64,000 nt of DNA, taken from the NCBI GenBank assembly GCA_004257845.1, contig GCA_004257845.1_4800.1. The stretch is one strand, 5' to 3'. Below are positions 3,711 through 59,276 of the stretch, piece after piece. Origin of the DNA: a phage. The notes beneath the pieces were generated by a model, which searched no databases, had not been told where the DNA came from, and was given only the letters and a program-made list of their open reading frames with translations. The stretch's first letter is position 1, and every line of letters starts with the position of its first letter. Both the position numbers and the translations under genes were made by a program.

Positions 3711-4328
3711 ATGACTTTCCAAACTAGTGTAGGCCGTCAATATACAACTGGCTTTCCTGGCGACATCGTTCGCGACGGCCCACAGCGTGGGAAGCCAGGT
3801 CGAATCGTTAGCGCCAACGAAGGTGCAAACGTAAACGCCATCAGCCGTGTGTTTGGTTTTAAAGCTGACGTATCTTTAATGGGCACTGGCCAAACCAAAA
3901 CCTTGGGCGCGCAGGACTTTGAAGTTGAACTGGGCGGCACCAATTACTATGGCATCCTTGGCAACAGCAAGCGTTACGCTCTGTATGGCAACTCTACTGG
4001 GCCTTTGGGTGCCAGCATGGTTCTGCCTCAATATAGCGAAGGCGAGTTTTACGATATGTGCACGGGCCTCGTAGTTGAAGTATTCAACCCTGGCACCAGT
4101 CCGCAGACGCTGAACTACGGCGACCTGCTCGCTTATGTACCTAAAGGCATTTCCAGCGGCAACAACCCGAACAACTTGCCTATCGGTGCAATTATCGCCT
4201 ATACTGGCTCACTGCCAACTGGCATGGCTGCCATTCCAGGCGGTATCGTGATTGACCCGACTGCTATTGCCCTTTCCGGCCCAAGCGTCCAGTCTTCCAC
4301 TTATACCATTGTACAATTGACTCGTTAA
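3711..4328 (+). CDS. capsid-associated structural protein (possible decoration protein)
   Basis: ATG at 3711 preceded by AAAGGGGA; Gly/Thr/Ser-rich; sits between scaffold-like and major capsid genes. Confidence 0.4.
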   Translation: MTFQTSVGRQYTTGFPGDIVRDGPQRGKPGRIVSANEGANVNAISRVFGFKADVSLMGTGQTKTLGAQDFEVELGGTNYYGILGNSKRYALYGNSTGPLGASMVLPQYSEGEFYDMCTGLVVEVFNPGTSPQTLNYGDLLAYVPKGISSGNNPNNLPIGAIIAYTGSLPTGMAAIPGGIVIDPTAIALSGPSVQSSTYTIVQLTR

Positions 4329-38937: not shown

Positions 38938-39786
38938 TTATTCTGCTTGATCGTCGTGCTCTTCGGCATCTGCTTCGGATTCAACATCGATGAACTCGAT
39001 GTGGCCCATCTCTTCCAGTTTGCTCAGGTAAGAGCGAACTGAAGCGCCAAACAGCTGATCTTTAACTTTTTCACCCAGCTCGTCGATAGACTGCGGCTGA
39101 CCGATTTCACCTTCTTTGATCGCAGCCAGTACGCGACCACGGGTGGAATGTTCTTGCGGCTGGCTCAGGCCGTTTCCGGTGTAAACAAAGTGAGTTGCTT
39201 TAGCGCGACGCTGACCATTAGCTTTCTTGGCGGCTTTACGCTCTGCAATCGCTTTGCGACGCTCTTCAGCTTCTTTCTTACGCTGTTCTTTCTGTTGTTC
39301 TGCAGCTTCTTTCGCCGCAATCTTAGCAGCTTCACGCTCTGCCTTGCGTTTCGCTTTCGCTTCTTCTTTAGCCTTTTCTTTTTCGGCTTTCGCTTCTGCA
39401 CGGGCCTGATCACGTTCAGCCTTTTTCGCCGCAGCTTGTTCAGCTTTCAGGCGCTTGGCTTCTTCTTTCGCCTTTGCCTTTTCAATTTCTTTAGCGGCTT
39501 TAGCGGCTTCACGCTCTGCCTTCTTAGCAGCAGCCTTTTCAGCACGCTCTGCAGCCTTCTTAGCGGCTTCTTCAGCACGCTTCTGAGCCTTCTCGTCAGC
39601 AGCCTGCTTGCGTTTCAGCGCAGCTTCTTCACGCTTGGCTTGTTTTTCCTGCTCACGCTTCTGGCGTTTTTCTTCGGCTTCTTTCTTTTTAGCCAGGCGT
39701 TTTTCTTCAGCCACGCGACGACGTTCTGCTGCAGCTGCTTGTTTTTCTTCTTTAGATAATACTTTGATTGCTTCGGCCATATTCAC
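38938..39786 (-). CDS. Lys/Ala/Glu-rich low-complexity protein with C-terminal globular domain (histone H1-like composition)
   Basis: About 190 aa of KAE-rich repeats (KKAAERAEKAAAKKAEREAAKAAKE...) then non-repetitive C-terminus; strong terminator downstream. Confidence 0.5.
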   Translation of the reverse strand: MNMAEAIKVLSKEEKQAAAAERRRVAEEKRLAKKKEAEEKRQKREQEKQAKREEAALKRKQAADEKAQKRAEEAAKKAAERAEKAAAKKAEREAAKAAKEIEKAKAKEEAKRLKAEQAAAKKAERDQARAEAKAEKEKAKEEAKAKRKAEREAAKIAAKEAAEQQKEQRKKEAEERRKAIAERKAAKKANGQRRAKATHFVYTGNGLSQPQEHSTRGRVLAAIKEGEIGQPQSIDELGEKVKDQLFGASVRSYLSKLEEMGHIEFIDVESEADAEEHDDQAE

Positions 39787-48479: not shown

Positions 48480-48808
48480 TGACCCGTGATCAGATACTTG
48501 CCGCGTATGAGCGTAGGAAGGTGAACGAAATCTGGAAAAGACACAACGCCTTTGCCGAGTCCTATTACTTCTTAAAGAGGTGCATAAAAGAGAATGTGAG
48601 GATGGGCGATACCGTTTTGACATTTAACATTTTGTCTTATGGTAATAAGCTTAATGCAATATATGCTTGTCGACTAGCCAACATGAAGTTCGATAGAGGA
48701 GGTGACGGAGAGTTGACCATCTATCGATTCTCTCACCGGACGGGTGATACAAAGATAACAAGGACACGTGACCAGATAGAGATTGACCTACTCCACTATG
48801 TAAAATGA
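48476..48808 (+). CDS. hypothetical protein
   Basis: ORF with 4-nt overlap. Confidence 0.4.
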   Translation: MMTRDQILAAYERRKVNEIWKRHNAFAESYYFLKRCIKENVRMGDTVLTFNILSYGNKLNAIYACRLANMKFDRGGDGELTIYRFSHRTGDTKITRTRDQIEIDLLHYVK

Positions 48809-54312: not shown

Positions 54313-54604
54313 GCGTATAATGACGTAAGATTTGGACCTATCCGTAGTTCACTCCACACACTTCTATGGTGCGCCGCGACTGGGTTCAGTGGTACATCTT
54401 ACGGATGATACGGATGATACGCGTCGCCGCTATACTTTATACAACTTTGAAAAAACAATTAACTCCATTTTGAATTAATTTAAATTAATTTTTTTCTACA
54501 TCCTCATACTTATACTAAACTTATATTTATACGTATTATCCGTAAGATATAAGTAAAAACAAAGACTTGCGGCAATACGGATGATACGTCATGATACGCT
54601 TCGA
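54313..54604. repeat. iteron-like region 2 (diverged paralog of region 1)
   Basis: GCGTATAATGACGTA at 54313-54327; TACGGATGATACGGATGATACGCGT at 54400-54424; AT-rich stretch about 54430-54530; inverted TATTATCCGTAAGAT at 54533-54547; ACGGATGATACGTCATGATACGC at 54578-54600. Confidence 0.7.
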
Positions 54605-54710
54605 CCAGCCAGCAGCGGCTAAGTCATTGATTTGCATAACAAGCGGCGAAAGGGATGGATTTCTTTTATACGTATCAAACAGTACACCACGCACCACGGT
54701 CCGCAATCCT

Positions 54711-56283
54711 ATTTGCACTATGATTTGTGTACGTTTATAGCCATAATGAACATCAATCTGCACTTGAATATAATGTCCATCCATTGTATAATTCACACTA
54801 TTAATTTGCACTATGGGATTTTGCACTATGAGTCAAGATTATGTAGCGATGCCTGAAGACTTTGAAGACCCGCGATTCGCAGAGCACAATCAGGCTTTAT
54901 TCGATGAGTTCATTGACCTTGTTATTCAGGGCCATGACATGCGCGCAGCTTTTGCACTAGTATTTGGAATGGAAGTTGCAACGGATAACTACACTGGCCA
55001 GCGAATCCTTTGCGCACAACGCAATCCGTACTACAAAATGCGCTTCAAAAAGCGTATGGAAGAGATGCCACTCAAGGATTTGTGGAGCGTAAAAGGTGCA
55101 ATTCACAATTTGGTCAAGCTTGTGCGTGATCCAGAAGTCGCGGCGTCAGCCAAGCTTAATGCTATTCGTGAACTGAATATCATCTACGGCATCACGATGA
55201 TTGATGAAAACGGCAATAGTAAAATGGGCCGTTCCATGGACGATTTCTACAAGGATTTTGGAGAGGCAGCCAAAGAAGGTGAGCAATTCTCCCGCCACTA
55301 GCCAATTTGCACTATAAAACGGCCCTAGAACACATTTTCTCCACTTCTAGGGCCATCGGTAATACGACGGGGAAGGTTACAACCGTAAACGCGTTAGAAA
55401 GTGTATTATTATAAGTCATCTTTTAGTCACTTTACGTAACAATTTACGACCTTCAACCGTCCAATCGAACGACTCCACCAGCAGATTTGCACTATAACCT
55501 AAGACGATGCGCCCTTTCTCGTTATCGACCCGCCAACAAGTCTCGAATAGCATTCGATTTGCACTATTAACTATTGCCGCAACTCGCGTAGGATAAGCGC
55601 AATTTGCACTATGGTCGTAAAGGGATAAGGTGCGACCACTTCCGATGGACAACGTAGCGATGAGAATGAGTGTATTCATAAGCCACCAATTTGCACTATG
55701 AAAAGCGACCCCGAAGGGCCGCCATTCGATTAGATAATCTGGAAGGTGTAGGACTTGTTGCCGAACTCGAAGTTTAAGCGTCCAGCTTCCTTAAGCTTCA
55801 TGCGGAAGCGAATGTGCTTGCTATCCGGTAAGCCCAGCGCGGCGAACGCTACGCGGACCGATTTGAACTCGCCTACACCCTCGACCATGACACCGTTACG
55901 GGTAAGACGCTTTTGCGCCACTTCCTTATTATCCCAACTTTTTGCAATACCTTCGCTATTCGAACGGCGATGGGATGGAGTTCCATTTTGCACTACGCAA
56001 TTTGCACTATCGTTTAAACCGCTCTTAACGAAGGCTTCATACTCTTCGTCGGTCATCGCGTCGAGTTCTTCCTGGGTCGGCTCGGACTTTTTAACGACCG
56101 CACGCGCCTTATGCGTTTTTACATCGTTGGGCACTTCCTCGCGCGACTTCGCGTCTGGGATGGGCGACTCGTTGGACGGCTCATCGAGCGCGTTTAAGGA
56201 CTCGATTAACGCTATTACGCGAGTCTCGGCGGTCCGGCGGTCCGCAAATTTTTTGATCGGCTTCGAACCGGAATTTGCATTAT
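54711..56283 (+). repeat. dispersed same-orientation array of 12-bp motif AATTTGCACTAT (at least 11 copies including variants)
   Basis: Copies at about 54711, 54803, 54819, 55304, 55485, 55557, 55601, 55688, 55985, 55999, 56272, all on the + strand; several lie antisense within minus-strand ORFs. Confidence 0.75.
54813..55301 (+). CDS. hypothetical protein
   Basis: ORF; start could be ATG 54813 or 54828 (no clear SD for either); followed by hairpin 55321-55354 (10-bp stem GGCCCTAGAA / TTCTAGGGCC). Confidence 0.4.
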   Translation: MGFCTMSQDYVAMPEDFEDPRFAEHNQALFDEFIDLVIQGHDMRAAFALVFGMEVATDNYTGQRILCAQRNPYYKMRFKKRMEEMPLKDLWSVKGAIHNLVKLVRDPEVAASAKLNAIRELNIIYGITMIDENGNSKMGRSMDDFYKDFGEAAKEGEQFSRH

Positions 56284-56356
56284 AAAATGCAACGAGGTCG
56301 GCGGTCTTAGTTGCGATAACGTCGCCGCTAGTCGAGAAACGATTTAAGCTAACCAT
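55730..56356 (-). CDS. hypothetical protein (CpG-rich island)
   Basis: 208-aa ORF with distinct codon usage; contains antisense motif copies encoding SANCVVQNG. Confidence 0.4.
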   Translation of the reverse strand: MVSLNRFSTSGDVIATKTADLVAFYNANSGSKPIKKFADRRTAETRVIALIESLNALDEPSNESPIPDAKSREEVPNDVKTHKARAVVKKSEPTQEELDAMTDEEYEAFVKSGLNDSANCVVQNGTPSHRRSNSEGIAKSWDNKEVAQKRLTRNGVMVEGVGEFKSVRVAFAALGLPDSKHIRFRMKLKEAGRLNFEFGNKSYTFQII

Positions 56357-56436
56357 AATGAACTCCTATTTGTTAGGGCGCTAGGCGCGAAAGAATTTTA
56401 TTAAAGCGCCGCGCACGACGCTCTAAAAATCCTCTC

Positions 56437-56721
56437 TTACGCTTCGACGAGGGAGAAGGTCTCAAATTCTTCTTCGCCCATAACGAGTAAGATGTTACCG
56501 ATTTCGACCGCTTCGAAGAAGTATCCGTTAACGTTTACTTCGAAGGCTTCGCGGTCCGATTCCGGTAACGCCGCGTAAAGTTTAAAAGCCTCGGCGACCG
56601 TAACCCCACCCGCCTCGATAGTTTGGTCTACGTTCGCGGCGTAGACTTCGGATAAAATTTGTTTTACGCCGTAGTTCTCGACGATAGCGTTACGGATAGA
56701 AGAAACGTTAAGAATAGCCAT
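56437..56721 (-). CDS. hypothetical small protein, paralog A
   Basis: 94 aa; similar to product of 57355-57645 (SIRNAIVE/AIRSARVE, VYxxNVDxTIE, NGxxxxxxEIG). Confidence 0.45.
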   Translation of the reverse strand: MAILNVSSIRNAIVENYGVKQILSEVYAANVDQTIEAGGVTVAEAFKLYAALPESDREAFEVNVNGYFFEAVEIGNILLVMGEEEFETFSLVEA

Positions 56722-56945
56722 TTTAAACTCCTAGTTGGGAGAGGCGTTAACGACCTATTCGTTAACTCATCCCGTCCCGATATGAGTACATTATAATATA
56801 GTGTAGAAAAAAGTAAAGCACTTTTTCGATAAAGATGAGATAAATTATTTTATCTTTTTTCTTTACTTCTTCGTACACTCGCGTATACTTGTTTATATCG
56901 AGACGGGCGATGACCCTTTCTTTTACTACCATCGGGAGTTTTATT

Positions 56946-57248
56946 ATGGCTACTTTAATTTCTTCTCTTCTTACTTACGACGAAGACCGCTTAACCGTCG
57001 CTTCTCTTCTTAAAGCCGTTAACGCAGAATTAGACGGGACCGCTATTAAGGTCCGCGCGTTCGCCTTCGTCGGCCTTTCCTTCGACGATATGAAGTACGT
57101 CGAACGTAGCGCCATCCGCTTCGCGAAGACCGACGACGAAGCCGTTACCCTTATCGAAACCGTAACGCCGCGCGGCGAAGCGCTAATTATCGTCGAGTAT
57201 CTCGATATAGAAGGCTATAAAGCTTATAAACATTTTATCGCAAAATAA
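56946..57248 (+). CDS. hypothetical small protein
   Basis: ATG 56946 preceded by GGGAG; CpG-rich codon usage. Confidence 0.4.
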   Translation: MATLISSLLTYDEDRLTVASLLKAVNAELDGTAIKVRAFAFVGLSFDDMKYVERSAIRFAKTDDEAVTLIETVTPRGEALIIVEYLDIEGYKAYKHFIAK

Positions 57249-57354
57249 CGAAAAGTGCTTTACTTCTTCGTACACTAAGACTATAATGTTTTATATCGAG
57301 AGGGGATGAGGTAGCGAATAGGTCGCTACCCGCCCGACCAACTAGGAGATTATT

Positions 57355-57645
57355 ATGATTACTTTAGCCGCTATCCGTTCCGCTCGCGTCGAGACTTCCG
57401 AAAACTCTAACGTATTTGGCGAAACCTTAGAGAGCGTTTATCTCTCTAACGTAGACGCAACTATCGAATCTATTTATGAGCCGATCAACTTCCTCGACCT
57501 TTACAAGTATCGCGATGAGGACATCGTATCTTGCCGCGTAACCATCAACGGCTTCGTCTATACGATTACCGAAATCGGCGGCGAATATCTCGCGGTCCCG
57601 CAACTCGGCGGCGAAGTAACTTTCTTTAAAATCGTAAGCCTGTAA
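57355..57645 (+). CDS. hypothetical small protein, paralog B
   Basis: 96 aa; similar to product of 56437-56721 but on the opposite strand; RBS AGGAGA. Confidence 0.45.
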   Translation: MITLAAIRSARVETSENSNVFGETLESVYLSNVDATIESIYEPINFLDLYKYRDEDIVSCRVTINGFVYTITEIGGEYLAVPQLGGEVTFFKIVSL

Positions 57646-57656
57646 GGAGAAGGAAG

Positions 57657-57866
57657 ATGACTAATATGAATAATTCTCTTAACGCGCGCGCCCATCGTAC
57701 CGCCGTAATCGATATGTTCCGCGAGCTTAAGGAATTATGCGATAATATGAACGCGATGTTATCCATCGGCGGCTGGGGATACGAAGAAGAGGTTAAATAC
57801 GCGGTTATGCGTCGCCGTCGCGATAACGTCCTTGGGCAAATTAAACGCGCCGGATTATTCCTTTAA
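57657..57866 (+). CDS. hypothetical small basic protein
   Basis: ORF preceded by GGAGAAGGAAG. Confidence 0.4.
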   Translation: MTNMNNSLNARAHRTAVIDMFRELKELCDNMNAMLSIGGWGYEEEVKYAVMRRRRDNVLGQIKRAGLFL

Positions 57867-57892
57867 TTATAATTACCAACAGTTACTAATAG

Positions 57893-57914
57893 GCCGCGCT
57901 TAGTCGCGGCTTTT
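57893..57914 (+). terminator. rho-independent terminator
   Basis: GCCGCG (57893-57898), loop CTTAGT, CGCGGC (57905-57910), then TTTTCTT. Confidence 0.6.
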
Positions 57915-58036
57915 CTTCGCCCCTATCTCGATGCGCTTCTCCGCGAAAACTCCTTTATCCTTCCCTTCGTCGTCGCATAATCTTCGTCGAGATGCTCCTT
58001 AGTTCGTATAACGGGTATTACGTTAAATGGAGAACA

Positions 58037-58110
58037 TCGCGTAAGTCCTTGTTTTATATAGACACCTATATCGGACCGTTAGGGCGGGTCGCGTAAGTCG
58101 TTGTTTTATA
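58037..58110 (+). repeat. 22-bp direct repeat pair TCGCGTAAGTC(C/G)TTGTTTTATA
   Basis: Copies at 58037-58058 and 58089-58110, one mismatch, in a non-coding CpG-rich stretch. Confidence 0.6.
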
Positions 58111-58386
58111 AAGGCGCAAAACTTTCCCTTCGTTCCGAACTAAAACGAGGAATATGCCGACCCTTCGTCCGAAAATAGTACGCATGCGAAATTACATGCA
58201 TCTCGAATAATTCCCACCGATATTATCCTACAAGCAATCATTCTCTTTCGAATCATTATGCTTCATATTATTATGCGTCGAATCATTCGCTTTCGAATTG
58301 TAACGCTGGAAACTGTAACGGCGATTGATTATTGCGTTCGTGTGGTTTTTAGGGCATGGGTCTTTTGGTGCGTTTTGGTACTTGAT

Positions 58387-58500
58387 GAAATTTGCAGTAC
58401 ACTAATCAAAATACGACACATTTGGTCCACTAACTTTTCAAAGAAAAAGTCCTGGACAGTACCGTACTATTTTGTACCCACAGGAAATTTGCAGTACACT
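58387..58500 (+). repeat. two exact 17-bp copies GAAATTTGCAGTACACT
   Basis: 58387-58403 and 58484-58500; share AATTTGCA core with the upstream motif array. Confidence 0.6.
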
Positions 58501-58571
58501 CCTGCGCGCCAGGCAAAATAAAGGGCCGCACTAAGCGACCCACGATTCACGGTTAAGGCAACATCCACCCA

Positions 58572-59018
58572 CTATTCACTCTTATGGGCATCACCAAAGC
58601 CATCCGCAATCTGGCTGATCAACGACTCAATGGACACAGTCTTACCAATTGATCGAGCGGTTATGGCGAGCATATTATCAATCAAACCGTGATTAACACA
58701 ACACTCTGGAGATTTAGAGTCATCTTCAGAACAACCAAAAAGCTGGTCGCGCAGACTTTCAAGAGAACGCTCAATATTTTCCAACTTCTCTTCTAAATCG
58801 GATTGGCGACGTAAAACCCATGTCAAGTCACGGTTGCCAACTTCCAATCCATCAGAATAGCAAGGTGGAGCGTCAATTTTGATACTGGAGCCAAAAGCGG
58901 TGCCGCTGCCTTTAGTATATGTGTGGCTCATAGAATCATTTTTATTTGACATATCATTACCTTTAATATTTGGGTGATTAACAATAACTATAATAAAGCC
59001 GCATAGCGCGGCATTCAA
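58572..59018 (-). CDS. hypothetical protein
   Basis: ORF; true start may be an internal Met. Confidence 0.35.
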   Translation of the reverse strand: MNAALCGFIIVIVNHPNIKGNDMSNKNDSMSHTYTKGSGTAFGSSIKIDAPPCYSDGLEVGNRDLTWVLRRQSDLEEKLENIERSLESLRDQLFGCSEDDSKSPECCVNHGLIDNMLAITARSIGKTVSIESLISQIADGFGDAHKSE

Positions 59019-59027
59019 ATCGATTTA

Positions 59028-59276
59028 TTAATTGTGACGATTGGATTCATCAATCGATACCAATTGTGCAGGGTCGCCGGATACCGTTGCGCCGATGATT
59101 CCCATCTGAGAGAAAAATTCTGAATAAACTTCTTTCCAGTACTTGCGCGCAGCTTTCTGGGCCTGCCCTTTGCGCTTGTAACTTTTTCCTTGAAAGATGA
59201 AGCGGTCTTTTGGAGCGTGATACTCCACCACACCTTCCAGCCATTGTAAGAATGCTACTGATTCATTTTGATTCAT
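59028..59276 (-). CDS. hypothetical protein
   Basis: ORF. Confidence 0.35.
   Translation of the reverse strand: MNQNESVAFLQWLEGVVEYHAPKDRFIFQGKSYKRKGQAQKAARKYWKEVYSEFFSQMGIIGATVSGDPAQLVSIDESNRHN

Follow-up and report, generated by a model that had tools for sequence, protein, structure and literature searches.

The two identical 17-nt sequences found just beyond the direct terminal repeat (DTR) of this phage most likely help to mark the site of the genome-end cut and not a promoter or operator, because the element to which the first copy belongs is kept at the DTR edge in three genera. We propose that the 17-mers and this boundary element may form an undescribed cis-acting element that defines the genome end or is recognised by the terminase, in the manner of cosB in phage lambda, and we give this reading a probability of about 0.5. 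All coordinates refer to the whole stretch of 64,000 nucleotides that was analysed, hereafter called the window.

The window belongs to a Wifcevirus, a PB1-like E. coli myophage. About 30 Wifcevirus genomes (among them WFC, WFH, Mansfield, ECML-117, FEC19 and Bas98-101), which are themselves PB1-like E. coli myophages with genomes of 66-72 kb, match the region of interest at 85-97% identity. DTRs of about 3.7 kb have been published for WFC, WFH and Mansfield (PMC6563267; PMC6753283). The DTR ends were mapped onto the window from five records (WFH, Ro157lw, SP13, Mansfield and WFC). Both copies of the repeat are physically present in the records of WFH, Ro157lw and SP13, while the ends of Mansfield were determined with PhageTerm. 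The resulting features of the DTR are the following.

54467-58365, no strand: direct terminal repeat, 3899 nt in the window, placed by homology to the five end-defining records
54466/54467, no strand: left boundary of the DTR, agreed on by all five records
58365/58366, no strand: right boundary of the DTR and putative right genome end, mapped by homology from the records of other phages
54828-55301, plus strand: small terminase subunit (TerS), homologue of the TerS of Pseudomonas phage E217 (PDB 7UXE, E=6e-34)
54710-56283, plus strand: array of 12 copies of RATTTGCACTAT, surrounding the TerS gene in the left DTR half
55730-56356, minus strand: p208, a 208-aa protein (phrog_4730) conserved inside the DTR
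57657-57866, plus strand: regulator-like gene of 69 aa (phrog_10377, PHROG 'transcriptional regulator'), an accessory gene located 520 nt upstream of the site

The right end of the repeat falls after GGGTCTTT and before TGGTGCG in four of the five records (WFH, Ro157lw, SP13 and Mansfield), which originate from different laboratories, one of them having used PhageTerm. In the fifth record, that of WFC, the DTR ends at the equivalent of 58446/58447, between the two 17-mer copies and 81 nt further to the right. The TerS gene, contained in the DTR, comes first in the gene order of the genome, and the large terminase gene is carried by the part of the genome located outside the window. The structure of the E217 small terminase has been solved (PDB 7UXE; PMC9611059). 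A locus search with TerS as query returned close relatives only.

Beyond this right boundary, the sequence contains a compact set of features.

58366-58412, plus strand: bipartite element, TGGTGCGTTTT, about 20 nt, then GTACACTAA, conserved across genera
58366-58376, plus strand: Box A, TGGTGCGTTTT, abutting the right DTR boundary
58378-58381: internal GTAC of the bipartite element
58397-58405, plus strand: Box B, GTACACTAA, with conservation continuing to ..TCAAAAT
58387-58403, plus strand: 17-mer copy 1, GAAATTTGCAGTACACT, forming the 3' half of the conserved boundary element
58484-58500, plus strand: 17-mer copy 2, GAAATTTGCAGTACACT, a Wifcevirus-specific duplicate
58373-58403, plus strand: extended repeat unit 1, TTTTGGTAC-N5-17-mer, parallel to unit 2
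58470-58500, plus strand: extended repeat unit 2, TTTTGTAC-N6-17-mer, as read from the sequence
58378-58497, no strand: cluster of six GTAC sites, at 58378, 58397, 58459, 58464, 58474 and 58494

The pair of exact 17-mers announced by the original prediction is real: GAAATTTGCAGTACACT occurs exactly twice, both times on the plus strand and with 97 nt from start to start. No third copy was found in the 64-kb window with up to 3 mismatches (0.23 expected), nor was the 17-mer present in the approximately 4 kb of genome that are absent from the window and were read in the relative EC150. None of 200 Markov-1 simulations of the window yielded a close exact direct repeat longer than 16 nt, and the pair exceeds chance expectation. 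Two further close exact direct repeats above chance length are present in the window, a 21-mer, AAATGAATATCAAAAAGGTGA, at 48803 and 49016 (213 nt apart) and a 17-mer, GCTTCACGCTCTGCCTT, at 39329 and 39506 (177 nt apart). Measured from the boundary given by four of the five records, copy 1 starts 21 nt and copy 2 starts 118 nt past the right edge of the DTR. The repeat extends beyond 17 nt in a degenerate form, with TTTTG(G)TAC and 5-6 nt preceding both copies and CAAAATA lying downstream of both, after 3 or 13 nt. GTAC is depleted about two-fold in the window as a whole (131 observed against 247 expected), and the six GTAC sites grouped in 120 nt from 58378 form its densest and only dense GTAC cluster.

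In order to evaluate the boundary outside the genus, we compared the window with more distant phages sharing an E217-type TerS. The TerS of Pantoea phage Kyle (Kylevirus) shares 43% identity, and the surrounding DNA cannot be aligned. The Kyle record contains both copies of a 3603-nt repeat, which ends with GTGCCCTT (...CCCTT) directly followed across the boundary by GACCGCGATTTAGTACCTGGTCCAATTTCACAGTACACTAATCAGAAT, where the window reads GGGTCTTT followed by TGGTGCGTTTTGGTACTTGATGAAATTTGCAGTACACTAATCAAAAT. GCG-TTT-GTAC, AATTT and CAGTACACTAATCA, the last of them without a difference, are common to both sequences and keep their register relative to the boundary. When positions 58366-58415 were aligned locally to 8 kb of Kyle on both strands, the best match fell exactly at the right boundary of the Kyle DTR, with a score of 49 compared to 23.7 ± 2.4 for shuffled queries (z = 10.7). 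The equivalent of copy 1 is found 22 nt from the right DTR end in Kyle, compared to 21 nt in the Wifcevirus records, and Box B starts 31 nt from the cut in the window, 32 nt in Kyle and 31 nt in Myosmarvirus. In the latter genus, the DTR boundary of MyoSmar, determined by PhageTerm, lies directly before TGGTGCGATTT-N20-GTACACTAA, as read in its close relative TropicalSun, and the best matches of the window element in TropicalSun and MTx are located at this same spot (z of 3.0-3.4 and 2.0, respectively). The annotated boundary of MTx is 14 nt further to the left of the element. The Myosmarvirus scores are weak (z of 2-3.4), a chance match with z = 3.6 being found in XcP1, and they are unconvincing without the positional coincidence.

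The conservation is specific to one segment. Among five segments of 50-60 nt around both boundaries, only 58366-58415 was conserved, and no cross-genus match was obtained for the copy-2 segment, for either flank of the left boundary or for the inner side of the right boundary. Kyle carries a single copy of the unit, copy 2 having no counterpart in Kyle or Myosmarvirus. Along the terminase lineage, conservation of the element is strong in Kylevirus and weak in Myosmarvirus, and the element is absent from Pa193 (Pbunavirus), XcP1 and Maja despite the same type of TerS. A gapped 19-base pattern retrieved only Wifcevirus and Kyle from IMG/VR, and from metagenomes it retrieved Wifcevirus contigs together with unrelated matches devoid of protein homology to the window; a 14-mer scan of IMG/VR was swamped by chance matches. 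Four of the unrelated metagenome loci (L155, L160, L165 and L168) carry 3-4 iterated CAGT(A/C)CACTAATCRAC motifs at intervals of about 30 nt, and one of these motifs is an exact match to Box B and its flank. These probably represent an independent array of binding sites that matches Box B by chance.

On this basis, we propose the following sequence of events. The replicating concatemer would contain one DTR at each genome-to-genome junction, and the packaging or end-processing machinery would have to cut precisely at 58365/58366 to produce the right genome end. Copy 1 would be the distal box of a bipartite site located on the unique-sequence side of the cut, and a phage protein bound to Box A and Box B would place the cut some 21 nt leftward of the 17-mer. 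The terminase would be the best candidate for this protein, acting through its E217-type small subunit (54828-55301). Copy 2, 97 bp further on, could be a second or cooperative binding site, an alternative cut site, or a sequence with no role. The repeat, its position relative to the reported termini, its conservation and the lack of promoter, ORF or RNA signals are direct observations, from which we infer protein binding, the identity of the binder and a role in cutting.

Several observations are in favour of such an end-defining function: the site lies 21 nt from a precise terminus in WFH, Mansfield, Ro157lw and SP13; the segment 58366-58415 is the only one of the five to be conserved, and this at the boundary of Kyle; and a TerS gene of validated type is present in the same DTR. 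In addition, the site lies past the terminator of the neighbouring gene module, and neither a promoter nor an Rfam family, a stable fold or a conserved ORF is present there. The only dense GTAC cluster of the window is found here, and the distance from cut to GTAC is 12 nt both at this boundary and in Kyle. Other observations count against it. E217 TerS displays no appreciable DNA binding in vitro (PMC9611059). The boundaries are displaced in WFC (+81 nt) and MTx (-14 nt), the 17-mers are no better conserved within Wifcevirus than their flanks, copy 2 is confined to this genus, nothing comparable is conserved at the left boundary, and the Pbunavirus, Xanthomonas and Burkholderia relatives with the same type of TerS lack the element. 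The element is moreover located beyond the molecule whose right end would be made, a geometry that calls for a putative T7-like step of DTR duplication.

A more far-reaching version of the proposal is that Box A and Box B constitute a cos-like end signal located outside the repeat across the PB1-like enterobacterial myophages with a long DTR (Wifcevirus, Kylevirus and Myosmarvirus), with cutting or strand-specific nicking at a fixed distance, 12 nt before GTAC, and with the second Wifcevirus unit serving as an alternative cut site. The 12-nt distance is found at the common boundary, in Kyle, and at the WFC boundary relative to the second unit; this recurrence may be a coincidence, or a second cut site may exist. 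We regard this version as tentative and rather doubtful.

The arrangement can be compared with known packaging systems. In lambda, cosB positions the nicking at cosN, and its R sites, recognised by the small terminase, lie beside the nicking site (PMC13595911). As in lambda cosB, short repeated boxes are grouped here within about 120 bp, all to one side of a precise terminal cut; the sites of cutting and of putative binding are distinct, and the small terminase subunit is the expected reader (PMC13595911). The differences are also clear: lambda has 12-nt cohesive ends and no DTR, its R sites flank an IHF site, whereas no IHF consensus was found between the 17-mer copies with up to 1 mismatch, and gpNu1 is unrelated to the E217-type TerS. 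Unlike in lambda, the boxes lie here outside the molecule whose end is made, and binding is putative. A parallel in architecture is also provided by T7 and T3, whose non-permuted genomes have exact direct terminal repeats with one copy of the repeat per concatemer junction. In these phages, correct cutting depends on a pac element of unique sequence beside the repeat (pacB), and duplication of the repeat is required. Direct terminal repeats bordered by an element of unique sequence are common to T7/T3 and to the arrangement proposed here. T7 and T3 are, however, podoviruses with a repeat of 160-230 bp and an unrelated terminase; there is no sequence similarity, and the repeat of the present phage reaches 3.9 kb and carries the TerS gene. 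The pac sites of P22 and of SPP1 (pacL/pacR), located within or close to the TerS gene, resemble the RATTTGCACTAT/GCACTA array in that repeated boxes lie near this gene (PMC9611059). These phages are headful packagers with permuted ends, whereas the 17-mers adjoin a fixed end, at 3.1 kb from the TerS gene.

The position and conservation of the element would equally fit a site for another DNA transaction at the edge of the repeat, such as priming or nicking for DTR duplication, initiation of replication, recombination, or protection of the end by a protein other than the terminase, for example p208. This protein is kept inside the DTR of Wifcevirus, Kylevirus (49%) and Myosmarvirus (35-37%), and its C-terminal part in Pbunavirus. 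The lack of DNA binding by E217 TerS in vitro (PMC9611059) points in the same direction, as do the AGTACAC-type sites that the window, Kyle and MTx carry some 10-215 nt inward of the left end. Against this, p208 has no recognisable fold or family: no match was found in Pfam, NCBIfam or the PDB, a homologue search returned near-identical proteins only, and a single-sequence AlphaFold model was unusable (pLDDT 39.5), so that p208 was not retained as a candidate for the binder or for a nuclease. The site shows neither iterons nor AT-rich features of an origin, and nothing favours such a function over recognition by the terminase. We consider this alternative unlikely, although it is the best placed of those that compete with an end-defining role.

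Somewhat less probable still is that the pair results from a neutral local duplication, in which case copy 1 alone or neither copy would be functional and copy 2 would be the remnant of a duplication of about 97 bp, kept by its recency. The absence of any counterpart of copy 2 and its surroundings in Kyle and Myosmarvirus is consistent with this view. So is the variation within Wifcevirus: the two copies diverge independently, being identical in only 3 of 20 aligned genomes, and with 15% of variable columns the 17-mers are no more conserved than their flanks (12-19%). These 20 genomes are 85-97% identical in this region and the 17-mers vary like the flanks, so that conservation within the genus is uninformative about constraint. 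On the other side, all 20 genomes keep the core AATTT(G)C-N-GTACACT of copy 2 and a spacing of 96-97 nt (97 nt in 19 of them); this core is invariant in the 17-mers, variation being confined to positions 1, 2 and 10. The flanks of the two units have drifted down to roughly 40% identity while the core stays, and the recorded DTR end of WFC lies 12 nt before a GTAC of the second unit, mirroring the geometry of copy 1. Judging from this pattern, the core of the copies looks to be under selection.

In the original prediction, the 17-mers were suggested to be possible promoter or operator elements, related as a second class to the AATTTGCA motif of the upstream array and situated at the start of a minus-strand tail-fibre module, which they would control. 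This module spans 62690 down to 58572, and the site is in fact at its 3' end, beyond the last gene (stop at 58572) and beyond the terminator, which lies between the last minus-strand gene and copy 2 and is annotated in WFC and WFH too.

58513-58541, minus strand: intrinsic terminator of the tail-fibre module, GGGTCGCTTAGTGCGGCCC then TTTATTTT, a hairpin at 58541-58523 followed by a T-run

On the plus strand, the final DTR gene stops at 57866, after which relatives annotate a plus-strand terminator upstream of the site; the 17-mers consequently occupy the gap between two converging transcription units. Beside the minus-strand terminator, Mansfield displays a tandem expansion of ACCCACG with about 6 copies (L001, about 3860-3900, corresponding to about 58541 in the window), and F13, SP13 and Bas99 have one additional ACCCACG copy.

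A promoter was not detectable either: a scan of 57600-59100 revealed no sigma-70-like site over either copy on either strand, and no -35/-10 pair with a spacing of 16-18 nt within 58366-58520 on either strand. Within the 17-mer, AAATTT, TGCA and GTAC are the only mini-palindromes, no inverted repeat that involves it was reported, and the lack of dyad symmetry does not suit an operator for an HTH dimer. The presence of a PHROG 'transcriptional regulator' gene 520 nt upstream could be taken as support, but this gene is found in only 6 of 17 sampled Wifcevirus relatives, is missing in 11 and is absent in Kyle, while the element is present in all of them. Three sigma-70-like promoters do exist within the DTR, at 56790-56817 (minus strand), 56862-56889 (plus strand) and 57259-57287 (plus strand). 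They read TTTACT-N16/17-TATAAT or TATACT, with CTTTACTT..(G/C)TACACT in common, two of them being exact 19-mers 397 nt apart, and they are probably early promoters of the divergent DTR genes. The GTACACT of the 17-mer occurs in the spacers of the sites at 56862-56889 and 57259-57287, which would be in favour of a promoter-like role; the four equivalent TTTACT-N17-TATAAT promoters of Kyle have spacers without GTACACT, and we therefore treat this occurrence as a coincidence.

The kinship of the 17-mers with the upstream array deserves separate consideration. The shared AATTTGCA core is genuine: both 17-mers agree with the array consensus AATTTGCACTAT in 10 of its 12 positions and share its orientation. 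At the background rate, a given 17-mer would show such a match with a probability of about 1e-3, for a comparison made post hoc. Array and 17-mers are moreover alike in being confined to the DTR and its edge, and the match and shared orientation would allow for a common reader. Several features separate them. The array core continues with CTAT whereas the 17-mer continues with GTACACT, and the array, unlike the 17-mers, lies partly inside minus-strand genes; all its copies are on the plus strand, one overlapping the TerS start codon and six running antisense inside minus-strand ORFs. The part conserved across genera is GTACACTAA with its upstream box, not AATTTGCA. Kyle, like the window, keeps both the boundary element and a GCACTA array (11 occurrences in the window and 14 in Kyle, at the corresponding place in L148 477-1478, all on the plus strand), but this array is absent in MTx and TropicalSun, two Myosmarvirus phages that have kept the boundary element, as well as in Pa193. 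These phylogenetic distributions suggest that array and boundary element are separable. The match and orientation favour membership in one motif family, the distribution is at odds with it, and kinship is unproven. Taken together, the position of the site, the promoter scans and the distribution of the regulator gene speak against control of the fibre module by a promoter or operator, to which we attribute a very low probability. Recognition by a protein, which had also been suggested, is a different matter: since the footprint that contains copy 1 is conserved between genera, a protein-recognition role is probable for the 17-mer, even though the roles first assigned to it are not supported.

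Two further readings were discarded. The description of the stretch as non-coding is effectively correct, since the small ORF at 58258-58521 that runs over both copies has no family match, crosses the DTR boundary and is frameshifted by 1-nt indels in SP13 and RCIP0319; as 97 is not a multiple of 3, the copies are in different frames of this ORF, which also disposes of a protein-coding repeat. A structured RNA was rejected as well, an Rfam search of 57600-58900 giving no match at E ≤ 1 and the DNA fold of 58330-58520 being no more stable than that of shuffled sequence (z = +0.37).

Other repeated motifs were noticed along the DTR. In its left part, CCACCAGC, the complement of the E. coli Chi site GCTGGTGG, forms a plus-strand cluster of 9 copies in Kyle (L148 255-1972) and of 4-5 copies in Myosmarvirus (Hera, L151 5237-6333; TropicalSun, L152 5987-6492), an orientation that would affect RecBCD arriving from the left genome end. 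In the window, a single exact copy is present in the left DTR part, at 55475. As the complement of Chi, enriched in Kyle and Myosmarvirus and not in the window, CCACCAGC was rejected as a part of the array motif. A cluster of AATCATT/AATGATT occupies the last 150 nt or so inside the right DTR end, with 3 copies in the window (58220-58307, within TCGAATCATT-type repeats) and 4 in Kyle (L148 3464-3585), and is absent in Myosmarvirus. The non-coding right part of the DTR also contains a 25-nt direct repeat, TCGCGTAAGTCCTTGTTTTATATAG, at 58037-58061 and 58089-58113, with 92% identity and 52 nt apart. Finally, the ACGGATGATACG motif family has 10 matches with up to 1 mismatch, compared to 0.16 expected, in two clusters (1918-2176 and 54401-54588). 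The first lies upstream of a DUF2213 head gene at 2290 and the second flanks the left DTR boundary, where an inverted pair (54393-54415 and 54529-54551) is centred about 5 nt from the cut.

To our knowledge, how the boundaries of kilobase-long exact terminal repeats are recognised and cut is poorly understood and has been little studied outside T7/T3, and the papers searched contained nothing on the recognition of DTR boundaries in Wifcevirus and its relatives. If the element were irrelevant to cutting, the finding would reduce to an ordinary conserved intergenic repeat. If it does define the end, it would give a sequence-level handle on the way in which terminases make kilobase-long exact terminal repeats, and use of the second Wifcevirus unit as an alternative cut site would explain the 81-nt-longer repeat of WFC. 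An element of about 47 nt conserved across genera at the right boundary, together with a TerS gene in the same repeat, provides a concrete target for mutation, and it would aid the annotation of genome ends in a group that includes therapy-relevant PB1-like phages.
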